Shown here in pieces: positions 15,007-64,000 of a DNA stretch of 64,000 nt. Each line of letters begins with the position of its first letter. Position 1 is the first letter of the stretch. The notes under the pieces were generated by a model, which saw only the letters and a list, made by a program, of their open reading frames with translations, was not told the DNA's origin and searched no databases. Source of the stretch: a virus. The translations under genes were made by a program, and so were the position numbers. Location of the stretch: IMG/VR virus record IMGVR_UViG_3300034200_001443, positions 70,381 through 134,380 of that record; one strand, given 5' to 3'.

Positions 15007-15234
15007 TTACCCCTCGTTCAGTTTTTTCAAGAGCGAGCCTACTTGTTCCGTTGCTTCGTATTCCAAATCCATTTCGATAGGGTCGTCATAATTTAATGTT
15101 CTCCACCTGCCCTCATCATGATCTACTCCGTCCCATACCGGGCCGTTCTTAAACCATGAACCTAAAGCTTCGTCTGCCGATGCCCATTTTTTTGTTTCCG
15201 TATTAAAACAAATTAAGTAATGGATTTCTGCCAT
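15007..15234 (-). CDS. Hypothetical protein
   Basis: TAATG coupling with the upstream gene. Confidence 0.6.
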   Translation of the reverse strand: MAEIHYLICFNTETKKWASADEALGSWFKNGPVWDGVDHDEGRWRTLNYDDPIEMDLEYEATEQVGSLLKKLNEG

Positions 15235-17777: not shown

Positions 17778-17812
17778 GAGAGTGGGAGTAGAGATACCTA
17801 ACTCCCACCCTC
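17778..17812 (-). ncRNA. Hairpin with a loop antisense to the RBS of gene 18912..19370
   Basis: 12-bp stem; loop GGUAUCUCU can pair with AGAGAUACC at 19372-19380. Confidence 0.5.
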
Positions 17813-17840
17813 AAAGCCAACACTAGGTTCTAGGGAAAAC

Positions 17841-18899
17841 CTAGATTTTCGCTGGCTTATGCTCTGCGCCGAACGCCCGAGCAATTACATCAACAACTAC
17901 ATCTCTATCTATTTCAGGTGCGCTCGCAATTAAATTAGAAATTGCGAACTCTGTTCCAAAGACTTCACTTGTATCTCTGAAACCTAGCAACTCACGCATT
18001 TGTGGCGACCATGAGATTTCAGCACTATCGCCTTGTGTGCGCTTGTATAGATTTTGAGCAACGCTAACCATTGTCGCTGGCACTCCTAACTTCTTTGCCA
18101 ACGCCCAATCAGTAGTTAGTTCTGCTTGGATTTGGAAACGAGATATTAACGCTTCACTCATGCGAACCCCCGGAGCATTTGGGTTAGTAGCAGAAACTAC
18201 ATAAAAATCCTCATGGACTTTAATAGTTCCTCTTTCAGGGTTCATTGGAATTGTTATCTCTTTTCGTCCGTCCATTACTGAATAGACAACTGCTAAGGCT
18301 TTAGGGTCAATCAAACCAATCTCGTCAATAAAGAAAGGCTTTCCAAACTCAACTGCCTTAATAAATCCTGCGTCAATCCACTCAAACTTTCCACTTGGGG
18401 TCTGAATAAACGAACCATAAAAATCATTGGTATCAGTATCACCATTACCAATTAAAGTTATTACTTCGTCATTAGAAAAACTTGCTTCTACTAAAGCAGT
18501 TTTTCCTGTTCCCGGAACTCCATAGAAAAATGCGAATTGTGGAGAACCAACGCCCTCTGAAAAGAACTTCTTAGTTGCTTCTCTTGCTCGGCGTAGAACT
18601 GCTACATCAGTATGAACTCCCCATTGGCGAGTGAAATACTTTTGTCCATTAGGGCGAACATAGAACTCATCAGCACTCATGTTATCCACCTCAACTCCAC
18701 TAGGGGTCATAGCACTAACTCGCTCTCTCGCTTTTCTTTTATCGCCACTTGCTCGCTCAACGCAACGACCACTTGGTAGAACTTTTGCGCTAAGTCGCAA
18801 AGAAGTATCCTCATGGACACTTTGGGTCAAGCAATCAGAAACGATATTCCAAAAATCGCCTCTTAAAGAAGCCAACTTGTCTTTGATAATTGTATCCAT
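17841..18899 (-). CDS. MoxR/CbbQ/CobS-like AAA+ ATPase
   Basis: GVPGTGKT Walker A, FIDEI Walker B, ATNP and ALISRF. Confidence 0.88.
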   Translation of the reverse strand: MDTIIKDKLASLRGDFWNIVSDCLTQSVHEDTSLRLSAKVLPSGRCVERASGDKRKARERVSAMTPSGVEVDNMSADEFYVRPNGQKYFTRQWGVHTDVAVLRRAREATKKFFSEGVGSPQFAFFYGVPGTGKTALVEASFSNDEVITLIGNGDTDTNDFYGSFIQTPSGKFEWIDAGFIKAVEFGKPFFIDEIGLIDPKALAVVYSVMDGRKEITIPMNPERGTIKVHEDFYVVSATNPNAPGVRMSEALISRFQIQAELTTDWALAKKLGVPATMVSVAQNLYKRTQGDSAEISWSPQMRELLGFRDTSEVFGTEFAISNLIASAPEIDRDVVVDVIARAFGAEHKPAKI

Positions 18900-18911
18900 T
18901 TTTATTGCCCC

Positions 18912-19370
18912 CTAAGCAATCTCAACAGGAAAGCCAAGTGCTTTTCTGCTTTGGTTGATACGATAAACAACTTTGATAGGTGTTTCACCTTTGTAAATCT
19001 CAATTAAATCATTTTGAGAAGTTTCTATCAGAATTGGGTCATTTACTAATTGCCAATCACCCTCAACCAATCCTGCGAAAATAGAGTTCAGGTGTTCTAA
19101 ACGCTTAGAAACATAAGTGTCTTTAAGACCTAGTTCTGCTAAATCTTGTGAGCCAACTTTTGCTAATTCCTCTGCGAACTGAACAGTTGTCTGTTGCCAT
19201 AACTTCTTTGGCTTTTCTCTAGAAACAATCCTGCGATAAATCTTGGCAGGAACTAAATCACCTGACGGCGTAAATCCGTCAGGGGTAATAAACATTTCTG
19301 TTCTGTATCCCGATTTTGCGAACTCGGCATAAACAGAAACACCCTGAATTGACTTTTCTTTGTCTAGCAT
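18912..19370 (-). CDS. Hypothetical protein upstream of the AAA+/VWA pair
   Basis: RBS and promoter; co-oriented. Confidence 0.7.
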   Translation of the reverse strand: MLDKEKSIQGVSVYAEFAKSGYRTEMFITPDGFTPSGDLVPAKIYRRIVSREKPKKLWQQTTVQFAEELAKVGSQDLAELGLKDTYVSKRLEHLNSIFAGLVEGDWQLVNDPILIETSQNDLIEIYKGETPIKVVYRINQSRKALGFPVEIA

Positions 19371-19470
19371 TGGTATCTCTTTTCGTCATTTACCTAATTC
19401 CCTACGAACTAGGTGTTGGGTCAATCTTACCATTTTCTATCATAGAAGCAAATTAGGCTAGGTGTGTCTT

Positions 19471-19523
19471 AAAAAAGGTTCTACCCCCACACTAAAATGA
19501 CGAGTAAAAGTATGGGGGTAGAA
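19471..19523 (-). terminator. Terminator whose 15-nt loop is antisense to the AAAUGACGA leader motif
   Basis: 15-bp stem with a G-U on the minus strand, U6 tail; loop UUUACUCGUCAUUUU. Confidence 0.7.
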
Positions 19524-19589
19524 ATCTATGTTTCCAGTTCCTAAGAAAGAGAAGCTTTAGAAAACCCTTTCTATGAGAACTGAAAGTTA

Positions 19590-19880
19590 TCAGTTCATAT
19601 CGACTTCGATCAACTGTGCTGGAAGTTCGTCGGCAGGGGGTAAAACTTTGTGCGGTTTAATTCCGTACTTTTTAAATTCTTTTTTATACTTCTTTGAGTC
19701 ACGACCCTCTGTAATCCAATCCGATATCAGTCGTGCAACCAAAAAGCGTTCCTCGTCCTTAGCTTCACGAACTAACAAGAAGTCCTCGTGTATCCAGTTT
19801 TCTGTACCAATCACCGTTATCTTGTCAGCGTTTCCGTAGTTTCCGTCAACATCAAAATAATGTATACGTCCCATGGGCAC
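19590..19880 (-). CDS. Hypothetical protein
   Basis: YFDVDGNYG motif; GAAAGGAG RBS. Confidence 0.65.
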   Translation of the reverse strand: MPMGRIHYFDVDGNYGNADKITVIGTENWIHEDFLLVREAKDEERFLVARLISDWITEGRDSKKYKKEFKKYGIKPHKVLPPADELPAQLIEVDMN

Positions 19881-24800: not shown

Positions 24801-25082
24801 TTACTTTTTAGCTTTTTTCGCTGCTTCGGCGGCTAGTTTTTTTCCAGCTTCCTTAGCAACACCTTCGGCGATACGGCCAAAGGCTGGGTCTTTCTTGTTC
24901 AACCAGCGGAGTGCGGTTGGGATGATGGAGGCCCAAAGTGCGTTGGCTACAAGGAGCCACTCACCTGCACCGAACTCGAGAGGTGACCCGATACCTGAGG
25001 TTTGCATGACGATCATTACTGCGCCAATAACTTGACCTGCAAGGTTACGGAGGTACGACTCGATTGCTACTTTGTTAATCAC
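24801..25082 (-). CDS. Holin-like two-TM protein
   Basis: Two TM helices, LRWLNKKDPAFG, basic tail. Confidence 0.6.
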   Translation of the reverse strand: MINKVAIESYLRNLAGQVIGAVMIVMQTSGIGSPLEFGAGEWLLVANALWASIIPTALRWLNKKDPAFGRIAEGVAKEAGKKLAAEAAKKAKK

Positions 25083-44930: not shown

Positions 44931-45003
44931 GCCTTCGTAGCTCAGGGGATAGAGCGAGACTCTTCTAAGGTCTGCGTCGCAGGTTCAATTCCTGCCGGGG
45001 GCA
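44931..45003 (+). tRNA. tRNA-Arg(TCT)
   Basis: Cloverleaf with GCCTTCG/CGGGGGC acceptor, CT-TCT-AA loop and GGTTCAATTCC T-arm. Confidence 0.9.
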
Positions 45004-45007
45004 CTTA

Positions 45008-45081
45008 GCGCTATTAGCTCAGTCGGTTAGAGCCCTGAACTCATAATTCAGTCGTCGCAGGTTCAAGTCCTGCATAGCGCA
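45008..45081 (+). tRNA. tRNA with CAT anticodon (elongator Met or Ile2)
   Basis: GCGCTAT/ATAGCGC acceptor and CTGAA-CTCATAA-TTCAG arm; lacks initiator features. Confidence 0.88.
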
Positions 45082-45110
45082 CTTAAGTTTAAATAAAATA
45101 AATCCTAAAA

Positions 45111-61481: not shown

Positions 61482-64000
<2,519 letters not shown>

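Follow-up and report, generated by a model that had tools for sequence, protein, structure and literature searches.

To our knowledge, the bacterial mRNAs whose 5′–3′ self-pairing has been dissected experimentally are few, comprising icaR, hbs and the type I toxin mRNAs. Distant base pairing also gates the initiation of cistrons in RNA phages such as MS2, and the small RNAs (sRNAs) OppZ and CarZ end in a terminator and depend on Hfq. As described for Staphylococcus aureus, a pyrimidine-rich 3′ motif of icaR pairs with the same message's Shine–Dalgarno (SD) region and blocks the initiation complex (PMC3868564). For type I toxin mRNAs such as hok and aapA, the cited account has the 3′ end of the full-length message folding onto the 5′ ribosome-binding site and leaving it translationally inert, with translation being possible until the 3′ end has been synthesized and again once this end has been trimmed (PMC6733600). 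OppZ and CarZ of Vibrio cholerae are presented as sRNAs that derive from 3′ untranslated regions (UTRs) as RNase E products and inhibit the translation of their own operon mRNA (PMC7398697), and the hbs mRNA of Bacillus subtilis as forming a 14-base pair (bp) pairing between its 5′ and 3′ UTRs within one mRNA, which modulates RNase Y cleavage (PMC5737220). Gill et al. (2025) describe long-range anti-SD-like sequences, pyrimidine-rich stretches hundreds of nucleotides (nt) downstream that pair with the ribosome-binding site, lower translation and stability, and are depleted from genes (PMC12697547). Here, we compare with these systems a 64,000-nt stretch of viral DNA (hereafter, the window), in which the region behind an AAA+ ATPase gene is complementary to the leader of g1, the first gene of the same candidate operon.

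The window makes up the final 64 kilobases (kb) of a viral record of 134,380 bp, which has direct terminal repeats (IMG/VR record IMGVR_UViG_3300034200_001443, positions 70,381 to 134,380). A selected RNA–RNA complementarity very likely exists at this locus, and we favor, with less assurance, a long-range 5′–3′ RNA pairing that would repress g1 by masking its start site.

Complementarity between the post-AAA+ hairpins and the g1 leader

The genes and elements concerned all lie on the minus strand (coordinates are those of the window):

19419–19371, minus strand: g1 leader, with the CCAACAC box, a leader hairpin and AGAGAUACC
19370–18912, minus strand: g1, the first cistron, 152 amino acids (aa)
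18899–17841, minus strand: AAA+ ATPase, 352 aa; AAA_5 (1.6e-13), PHROG 'ATPase' (5.7e-50) and 'porphyrin biosynthesis' (8.7e-17); CobS-like
17844–17823, minus strand: hairpin I, CUAGGUU-UUCCCUAG-AACCUAG
17823–17817, minus strand: GUGUUGG, complement of the g1-leader box CCAACAC (19419–19413)
17812–17778, minus strand: hairpin II, GAGGGUGGGAGU-UAGGUAUCUCU-ACUCCCACUCUC; GC-rich, with a 12-pair stem containing one mismatch and the 11-nt loop UAGGUAUCUCU (17800–17790)
17600–15819, minus strand: VWA-domain protein, 593 aa; CobT-like; VWA_CoxE at 23.7 bits, under the cut-off of 26.4

The two hairpins stand about 1.5 kb from the g1 start. A model's earlier note, made from the letters without database searches (hereafter, the sequence-only reading), had proposed that the loop of the hairpin at 17778–17812 is complementary to a site just before the AUG at 19370, and an exact 9-nt match was indeed found: the loop stretch GGUAUCUCU (17798–17790) is the complement of AGAGAUACC (19380–19372), which spans the weak SD and the spacer and stops 2 nt short of the AUG. 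The loop of hairpin I, UUCCCUA (17837–17831), complements UAGGGAA of the leader (19404–19398), which lies in and beside the loop of the leader hairpin (19414–19392, −11.2 kcal/mol). The same reading had seen a two-box mirror, in which CCAACAC-N7-TAGGGAA on the plus strand (17817–17837) reflects CCAACAC-N8-TAGGGAA on the minus strand (19419–19398); it is present as described, and its spacers partly pair (TAG/CTA and TTC/GAA). Its placement of TAGGGAA in the loop of a small hairpin (17844–17823) was likewise borne out. A feature on which it had not remarked is the position of the AAA+ stop codon, UAG (17843–17841), within the 5′ arm of hairpin I. The RNA past this stop would read UAG-GUUUUCCCUAGAACCUAG-UGUUGG-CUUUGA, followed by hairpin II. 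The calculated energy of the hairpin II loop with the start region is −14.8 kcal/mol, and that of the extended box I duplex (~26 nt) is −27.7 kcal/mol, compared with 20.1 kcal/mol to open the leader hairpin and hairpin I.

Excess over chance within the window and its genome

Taken singly, the words are unremarkable in the window: CCAACAC occurs 9 times (6.3 expected), TAGGGAA 8 times (9.5 expected) and AGAGATACC exactly three times. Their arrangement exceeds the random background. The complementarity score of the leader (19425–19365) with the region 17850–17770 is 37, compared with 19.0 ± 3.3 in 1000 dinucleotide shuffles, of which the highest gave 36 and none reached the observed value. The corresponding VWA leader/3′ pair scores 33 against 18.5 ± 2.75 (0 of 1000 shuffles). 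A weaker statistic adds up the lengths of the two longest exact segments, and its value of 16 was reached by 14 of 1000 shuffles; the energy of the window's pair in 14-nt windows (−15.4 kcal/mol) lies within the range that its leader attains with foreign 3′ regions (best −16.4 kcal/mol).

When the 5′ and 3′ ends of each unit in the phage's own genome were ranked by local alignment, the VWA pair (33) came first and the AAA+ 3′ region with the g1 leader (27) joint second, above a background of 15.9 ± 3.4 with a 99th percentile of 26. The lead of these two pairs suggests that the design is peculiar to this module and is not a general property of the genome. The local alignment replaced a genome-wide comparison of hairpin loops with start regions, which returned AT-rich matches only and missed the known pair because the minimum free energy fold pinches its loop. 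In a search of the window for inverted repeats, the AAA+ pair was not among the 25 longest of 101 inverted pairs, owing to its indel and 9-nt length.

The 99th percentile of this background is also reached or exceeded by three other genes, at 24801–25082 and 61935–62123 of the window and at 177–371 of the genome. The complementarity at 24801–25082 seems to be due to an inverted copy of the GGGGTAAAA motif described below.

Conservation with covariation in related phages

Relatives were collected in two scans of viral contigs: 21 loci came from the first and the best 80 of 253 relatives from the second, some contigs being fetched twice. Grouping by shared 8-mers gave 42 non-redundant loci, and 41 were retained after L021, whose AAA+ gene is split, had been dropped; the listing of 8-nt covariation omitted both L021 and L022. 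Among the 101 locus records with the ATPase, g1 is found in 98 and the VWA gene in 99, in identical order, and both order and orientation are constant across all fetched loci. A blastn search of phage records for distant relatives gave a single short match.

The hairpin loops of each folded 3′ region, extended by 2 nt, were compared with the leaders from −45 to +3. Across the 41 loci, the longest exact complement averages 7.22 nt with the locus's own leader and 5.09 nt (standard deviation 1.24) with the leaders of other loci. A complement of at least 7 nt is present in 32 of 41 cognate pairs, as opposed to 230 of 1640 non-cognate ones, and the cognate mean was reached by none of 100,000 permuted pairings (maximum 5.9). 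Both parts of the 3′ region contribute. In the first zone (stop codon to +20), permutation gave a P value of 1e-5, and 11 of the 15 matches of at least 7 nt extend to −16..+2, the SD region. In the second zone (+17 to +75), the cognate mean was again reached by 0 of 100,000 permutations, with 16 of 33 such matches extending to −16..+2. The commonest targets across loci are the SD, the spacer and the AUG itself. Local duplex energy, calculated in 14-nt windows, is also better in cognate pairs, at −16.22 against −13.21 kcal/mol for non-cognate pairs (0 of 100,000 permutations). Thus, the complementarity claimed by the sequence-only reading is kept in related phages with differing sequences, and its duplex energy stands apart from that of mismatched partners.

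Comparison of the −20..+3 segment with the second zone revealed 26 distinct leader/loop combinations of at least 8 nt, distributed over 51 of 99 loci. Examples are as follows (leader/loop):

Window: AGAGAUACC/GGUAUCUCU
L002: GAUACCAAU/AUUGGUAUC
L004–L006: AGAGAGAA/UUCUCUCU
L007: ACACCCAUG/CAUGGGUGU
L032: GAUACCCAUG/CAUGGGUAUC
L034: GACACCCAAUG/CAUUGGGUGUC
L033: GGACACCUA/UAGGUGUCC
L088: GACACCCAUG/CAUGGGUGUC
L038: a pair of 13 nt

In more distant lineages, the match is carried by the loop of the stop-codon hairpin:

L010: UUCCGUUC/GAACGGAA
L015: GUUGUGUC/GACACAAC
L018: UGUGUCCU/AGGACACA

Since the paired sequences change between lineages, this pattern represents covariation and not plain conservation. 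The placement of the AAA+ stop codon in the 5′ arm of a hairpin recurs in 26 of 41 loci; for the VWA stop codon, taken as a control, the count is 10 of 32. A comparison of the VWA leader with the AAA+ 3′ region in the relatives gave no significant signal (P = 0.18).

A second version of the design at the VWA gene

The VWA gene possesses corresponding elements of its own:

17629–17601, minus strand: VWA leader, with the boxes GGACACACG and AAGGACGA (SD region)
15801–15753, minus strand: post-VWA hairpin, whose large loop with UCGUCCUU and GUGUGUCC (15788–15765) is complementary to the VWA leader

The statement of the sequence-only reading that the same design exists at the VWA gene agrees with the 75% complementarity over 24 nt between 17629–17606 and 15788–15765. 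Coordinates were available for 84 loci, of which 39 non-redundant ones entered the comparison in relatives; on average, the VWA leader matches its own post-VWA region over 7.82 nt and those of other loci over 6.40 nt (0 of 100,000 permutations). In the relatives, the conserved core of the hairpin is GCGUCCUUCCAGCGUGUGUCC. The element consists of an outer stem of variable sequence around a mini-hairpin with the loop UCCUUCC, an anti-SD sequence, followed by GUGUCC, and these two motifs face GGAAGGA and GGACAC of the VWA leader. In folds of single sequences, the anti-SD core lies inside an outer stem of at least 5 pairs in 19 of 21 elements and is nearly all unpaired in 13 of 21. Such folds were used because a MAFFT alignment of 22 post-VWA elements misaligned the 3′ arm and gave RNAalifold no consensus. 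An 11-nt match between the post-VWA hairpin loop and the VWA leader is also present in Actinomycetia phage DSL-LC01, which its source describes as metagenome-assembled (PMC10611076).

The spacer between the AAA+ and VWA genes has a particular form in the distant lineages L010, L012 and L015–L017. There, TTGACA lies in the 3′ arm of the second hairpin, a long palindrome, and a −10-like box comes behind this hairpin, which suggests that the −35 element of the VWA promoter is embedded in it.

Strand bias and transcript layout

In 33 of 41 loci, the post-AAA+ region folds more stably as the mRNA strand than as its complement (Wilcoxon, 3.9e-5), and G·U pairs are more frequent in the mRNA-strand folds (101 of 940 pairs) than in those of the opposite strand (42 of 862). 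This bias and the excess of G·U pairs point to a structure selected in the transcript. Antisense open reading frames starting from the CAT of the loop were considered and set aside; they occur in 4 of 41 loci, span 5–38 codons and are not conserved.

The boundaries of the transcripts are inferred from the following features:

19521–19481, minus strand: terminator hairpin of the preceding gene, with a U-tract (19476–19471) behind it
19451–19424, minus strand: promoter-like P1 (inferred; read by eye), TTGCTT, 16 nt, TGG-TAAGAT, with an extended −10
17668–17641, minus strand: promoter-like P2 of the VWA gene, TTGATT, 16 nt, TATGAT, with TG in front; listed by the consensus scan
15742–15708, minus strand: canonical terminator behind the VWA gene, CCCCCUAC, loop, GUAGGGGG, then UUUUU

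The predicted start from P1 is close to A19417, and the −10 pattern TGnTA..T is retained in L002 and L007. As CCAACAC overlies this start, possibly only part of the box would be present in RNA from the nearest promoter. Hairpin II is followed by UAAAUAACUAG, which contains no U-tract, unlike the terminators at 19521–19471 and 15742–15708, so that hairpin II is not an intrinsic terminator in the sense of a GC-rich hairpin with a U-run. A run of at least 5 T within 9 nt behind the main hairpin was found in only 3 of 41 loci by a crude call. While the complementarity of the AAA+ 3′ region to the leader of the first gene stood, its designation as a 3′ UTR by the sequence-only reading therefore needs qualification: the region may be intercistronic in a longer g1–AAA+–VWA transcript. 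Hairpin II is probably such an intercistronic element, or a barrier for processing or stability, and not a terminator. A search of Rfam returned no family at the gathering score, the sole match being SurC on the opposite strand (21.8 bits against 80; E value 0.64).

The VWA terminator, through its 5′ arm and loop, shows 82% complementarity with 19421–19400 of the g1 leader (22 nt), a pairing that would close a read-through g1–AAA+–VWA transcript. Comparison of the g1 leader with the post-VWA region in relatives was not significant (P = 0.27), i.e., this match is not conserved.

The loop of the preceding gene's terminator, UCGUCAUUU (19503–19495), is also complementary to the g1 leader, at AAAUGACGA (19391–19383). 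The loop/leader pairs of L007 (UUCGUCAUUU/AAAUGACGAA) and L008 (UUCGUCGUUU/AAACGACGAA) are one compensatory pair apart, and the signal over the 41 loci is weak (P = 0.035). Since this loop lies upstream of P1, its pairing would act only in trans or after read-through.

A single RNA-library contig (run X16, depth 2.9) matches 17804–17918 and then diverges at hairpin II, as a strain variant. In its 30 loose letters, read by eye, an 8-nt complement of GAUACCAA in the leader is still there.

Proposed mechanism and alternative explanations

Once transcribed and free of ribosomes, the 3′ hairpins would dock their loops onto the g1 leader, at the SD region, the spacer and the start codon. In the window, the leader hairpin and hairpin I may kiss and extend to the ~26-nt duplex. 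Docking would hide the ribosome-binding site of g1 and limit its translation, and decay might change too. The AAA+ cistron would retain its own SD, UAGGGGG, which is located 8 nt upstream of its AUG, and g1 would be left a co-transcriptional period for translation before the 3′ hairpins form. The pairing could take place either within one molecule or between a stable 3′ fragment and new transcripts. The VWA gene would use its own version, in which the anti-SD loop of UCCUUCC type and the GUGUCC box of the 3′ hairpin pair with GGAAGGA and GGACAC.

A more elaborate form of this mechanism would gate the closure by translation. The anti-SD loop of hairpin I type begins 0–12 nt past the AAA+ stop codon, which itself lies in the stem, and terminating ribosomes would therefore melt the stem and cover the loop. 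Ribosomes terminating on AAA+ would thereby keep g1 initiation licensed, and untranslated mRNA would silence itself. Such reverse translational coupling would form a closed loop, and the VWA element would repeat its closing part, beyond the reach of the terminating ribosome. This switch is a tentative and rather improbable extension; if it operates, it would set the subunit ratios of a g1/AAA+/VWA machine and constitute a new principle for bacterial and phage operons.

Several observations weigh against RNA pairing that masks the g1 start site, or qualify it. Of the 33 loci whose second zone has a match of at least 7 nt, 17 have a target upstream of −16, so that the start site proper is not always hit. 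By the energy measure, only 7 of 41 loci have their cognate partner as the top-scoring one of the row, partly because many lineages share leaders of GACACCC type. The cognate energies obtained with RNAduplex for entire 75-nt pieces (−19 to −43 kcal/mol) overlap the non-cognate ones, since long interior loops are allowed, and this measure was set aside in favor of the local ones. Strand asymmetry is absent from the post-VWA region (16 of 32 loci). The positions flanking the paired cores contain 28 A·C and 7 G·U combinations, similar to non-cognate pairs; these flank counts follow composition and are uninformative. P1 is absent from the list of the consensus promoter scan, its −35 element matching in 3 of 6 positions. 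The genes are partly covered by contigs from four RNA-library runs (X15–X18). Two of these contigs extend across the AAA+ stop codon and hairpin I, and 19432–19700 is covered by none; all are shallow pieces that may derive from DNA and cannot reveal transcript ends, and they are not usable as evidence. In Microbacterium phage Pumpernickel, the genes are packed without spacers and carry no such element, which indicates that it is not required for protein function.

The same pairing might serve mRNA stability or processing, either by shielding the 5′ end from 5′-end-dependent nucleases, as in hbs, or by creating an RNase III site. Box I of the window lies at the predicted 5′ end, its ~26-nt duplex (−27.7 kcal/mol) is long enough in principle for RNase III, and the second-zone targets upstream of −16 in 17 of 33 loci fit such a role, for which the 14-bp UTR pairing described for hbs, with its effect on RNase Y cleavage, is a precedent (PMC5737220). 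However, the complement spans just 7–11 nt in most lineages, less than RNase III would need, it is most often directed at the SD, spacer and AUG, and the 5′-terminal box is not conserved in L007 and L008, making this explanation unlikely. Action exclusively in trans, by a stable 3′ fragment of the operon mRNA that represses g1 on new transcripts as a feedback of OppZ/CarZ type or as an infection timer, would benefit from the resistance of GC-rich hairpins to 3′ exonucleases, and loops with 7–11 complementary nt are typical of antisense RNAs. The match of the preceding terminator loop upstream of P1, with its compensatory change between L007 and L008, and the precedent of OppZ and CarZ as reported (PMC7398697) agree with this version. 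Nevertheless, hairpin II has no U-tract, and the crude call found at least 5 T in the next 9 nt in 3 of 41 loci; the missing U-tract sets hairpin II apart from terminator-ended sRNAs of the Hfq type. The upstream match is moreover weak family-wide (P = 0.035), and we consider an exclusive trans action quite unlikely.

A function at the DNA level would take the repeats as sites for site-specific inversion of the g1–AAA+ cassette or as paired protein-binding sites. Inverted repeats do flank the cassette, on the promoter-to-start-codon side and on the post-stop side, but their arms are short, interrupted and variable between lineages, lie in loops of hairpins that fold better as the mRNA strand, and coincide with the SD and AUG positions, while gene order and orientation are constant in all loci fetched; this function appears very improbable. 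Finally, purine-rich leaders could match pyrimidine-rich 3′ regions anywhere by composition. The chance frequency of the single words, the 14% of non-cognate pairs with at least 7 nt and the overlapping whole-piece duplex energies are in line with such an origin; yet, the cognate arrangement beats all 100,000 permuted pairings in four separate statistics and the window score exceeds all 1000 shuffles, leaving chance scarcely credible. Long-range pairing that would mask the g1 start site is the explanation that we retain as the rather probable one.

If the pairing represses g1, the phage would cap the output of its first cistron without a protein regulator, and the loop with its matching leader would provide a compact, programmable part for synthetic operons. 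A widespread phage family from lakes and other environments (253 relatives in one scan) carries the design two times in tandem, and the natural compensatory variation within it is plentiful and comes close to a ready-made mutational series. Two conserved RNA elements without annotation are thereby flagged: the post-AAA+ hairpin pair and the post-VWA UCCUUCC/GUGUCC hairpin.

Gene products and other features of the window

The window has a G+C content of 41.6% and originates from lake-water metagenomes; 14 DNA runs contain 89–100% of its sampled words. The AAA+ and VWA proteins look like the CobS/CobT-like pair of many phages, with the small protein g1 in front, and a relative's VWA protein carries the annotation 'cobalamin biosynthesis protein'. 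No family was found for g1 in Pfam, PHROGs, NCBIfam or PADLOC. Its AlphaFold model, a β-sheet with helices, is confident (predicted local distance difference test 86.8, predicted template modeling score 0.80), and a comparison of this model with the PDB gave no fold match (best E value 0.13).

The motif GGGGTAAAA occurs 23 times in the window, compared with 0.61 expected, with 20 copies on the minus strand of an early-looking gene block (2492–28680). Example copies lie at 15013–15005, 14501–14493, 15700–15692 and 9818–9810, and some are located behind terminators. As several copies directly precede an ATG, the motif is probably the usual SD and spacer of this phage. The start regions of g1 and the VWA gene differ from it and are of GAAAGGA type. 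Two adjacent tRNA genes, Arg (tct) and Met (cat), are found on the plus strand at 44931–45082.

Comparison with known systems

The locus shares with icaR, as described, a 3′ motif complementary to the SD region of its own message, and with the described type I toxin mRNAs a predicted 5′–3′ long-distance interaction through a 3′ anti-SD; here, the 3′ sequence is complementary to the SD and start region of its own operon. The differences from the icaR case as reported concern architecture and evidence. The element is aimed at an operon's first cistron from 1.5 kb away, and two hairpin loops together span the SD, spacer and AUG of that cistron. The last cistron has its stop codon within one of the hairpins, the next gene has the design as well, and covariation across about 40 phage lineages lends support. 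Cleavage by RNase III is improbable in most members, since the pairing is just 7–11 nt, the ~26-nt duplex being restricted to the clade of the window. Relative to the type I toxin mRNAs in their published description, which are short and monocistronic, the predicted message here would be polycistronic and at least 1.6 kb long, with no toxin and no antisense partner gene.

The resemblance to OppZ and CarZ, as far as their report describes them, lies in a 3′ end of an operon transcript that is complementary to the mRNA of the same operon, at the sequence level and in the start region; hairpin II differs in having no U-tract and thus does not resemble an sRNA end formed by an intrinsic terminator of the operon. 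The hbs mRNA, in the form described, likewise has a long-range 5′/3′ pairing, which modulates RNase Y cleavage and does not mask a start site. In contrast to the anti-SD-like sequences of Gill et al., depleted from genes in their account, those found here are retained, placed in loops and co-varying with lineage-specific flanks.

In our searches of the literature, some of them directed at phages, we found no description of such an element in a double-stranded DNA phage operon, nor of one with a stop-codon hairpin, two loops and the design repeated in the next gene. The distant pairings of MS2 type belong to the genomes of single-stranded RNA phages, whereas the present one belongs to an operon of a 134-kb double-stranded DNA phage. 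The principle of 5′–3′ self-pairing is already known, and what seems new is its version in a phage operon, where one hairpin holds the stop codon, two loops take part and the design recurs in tandem.

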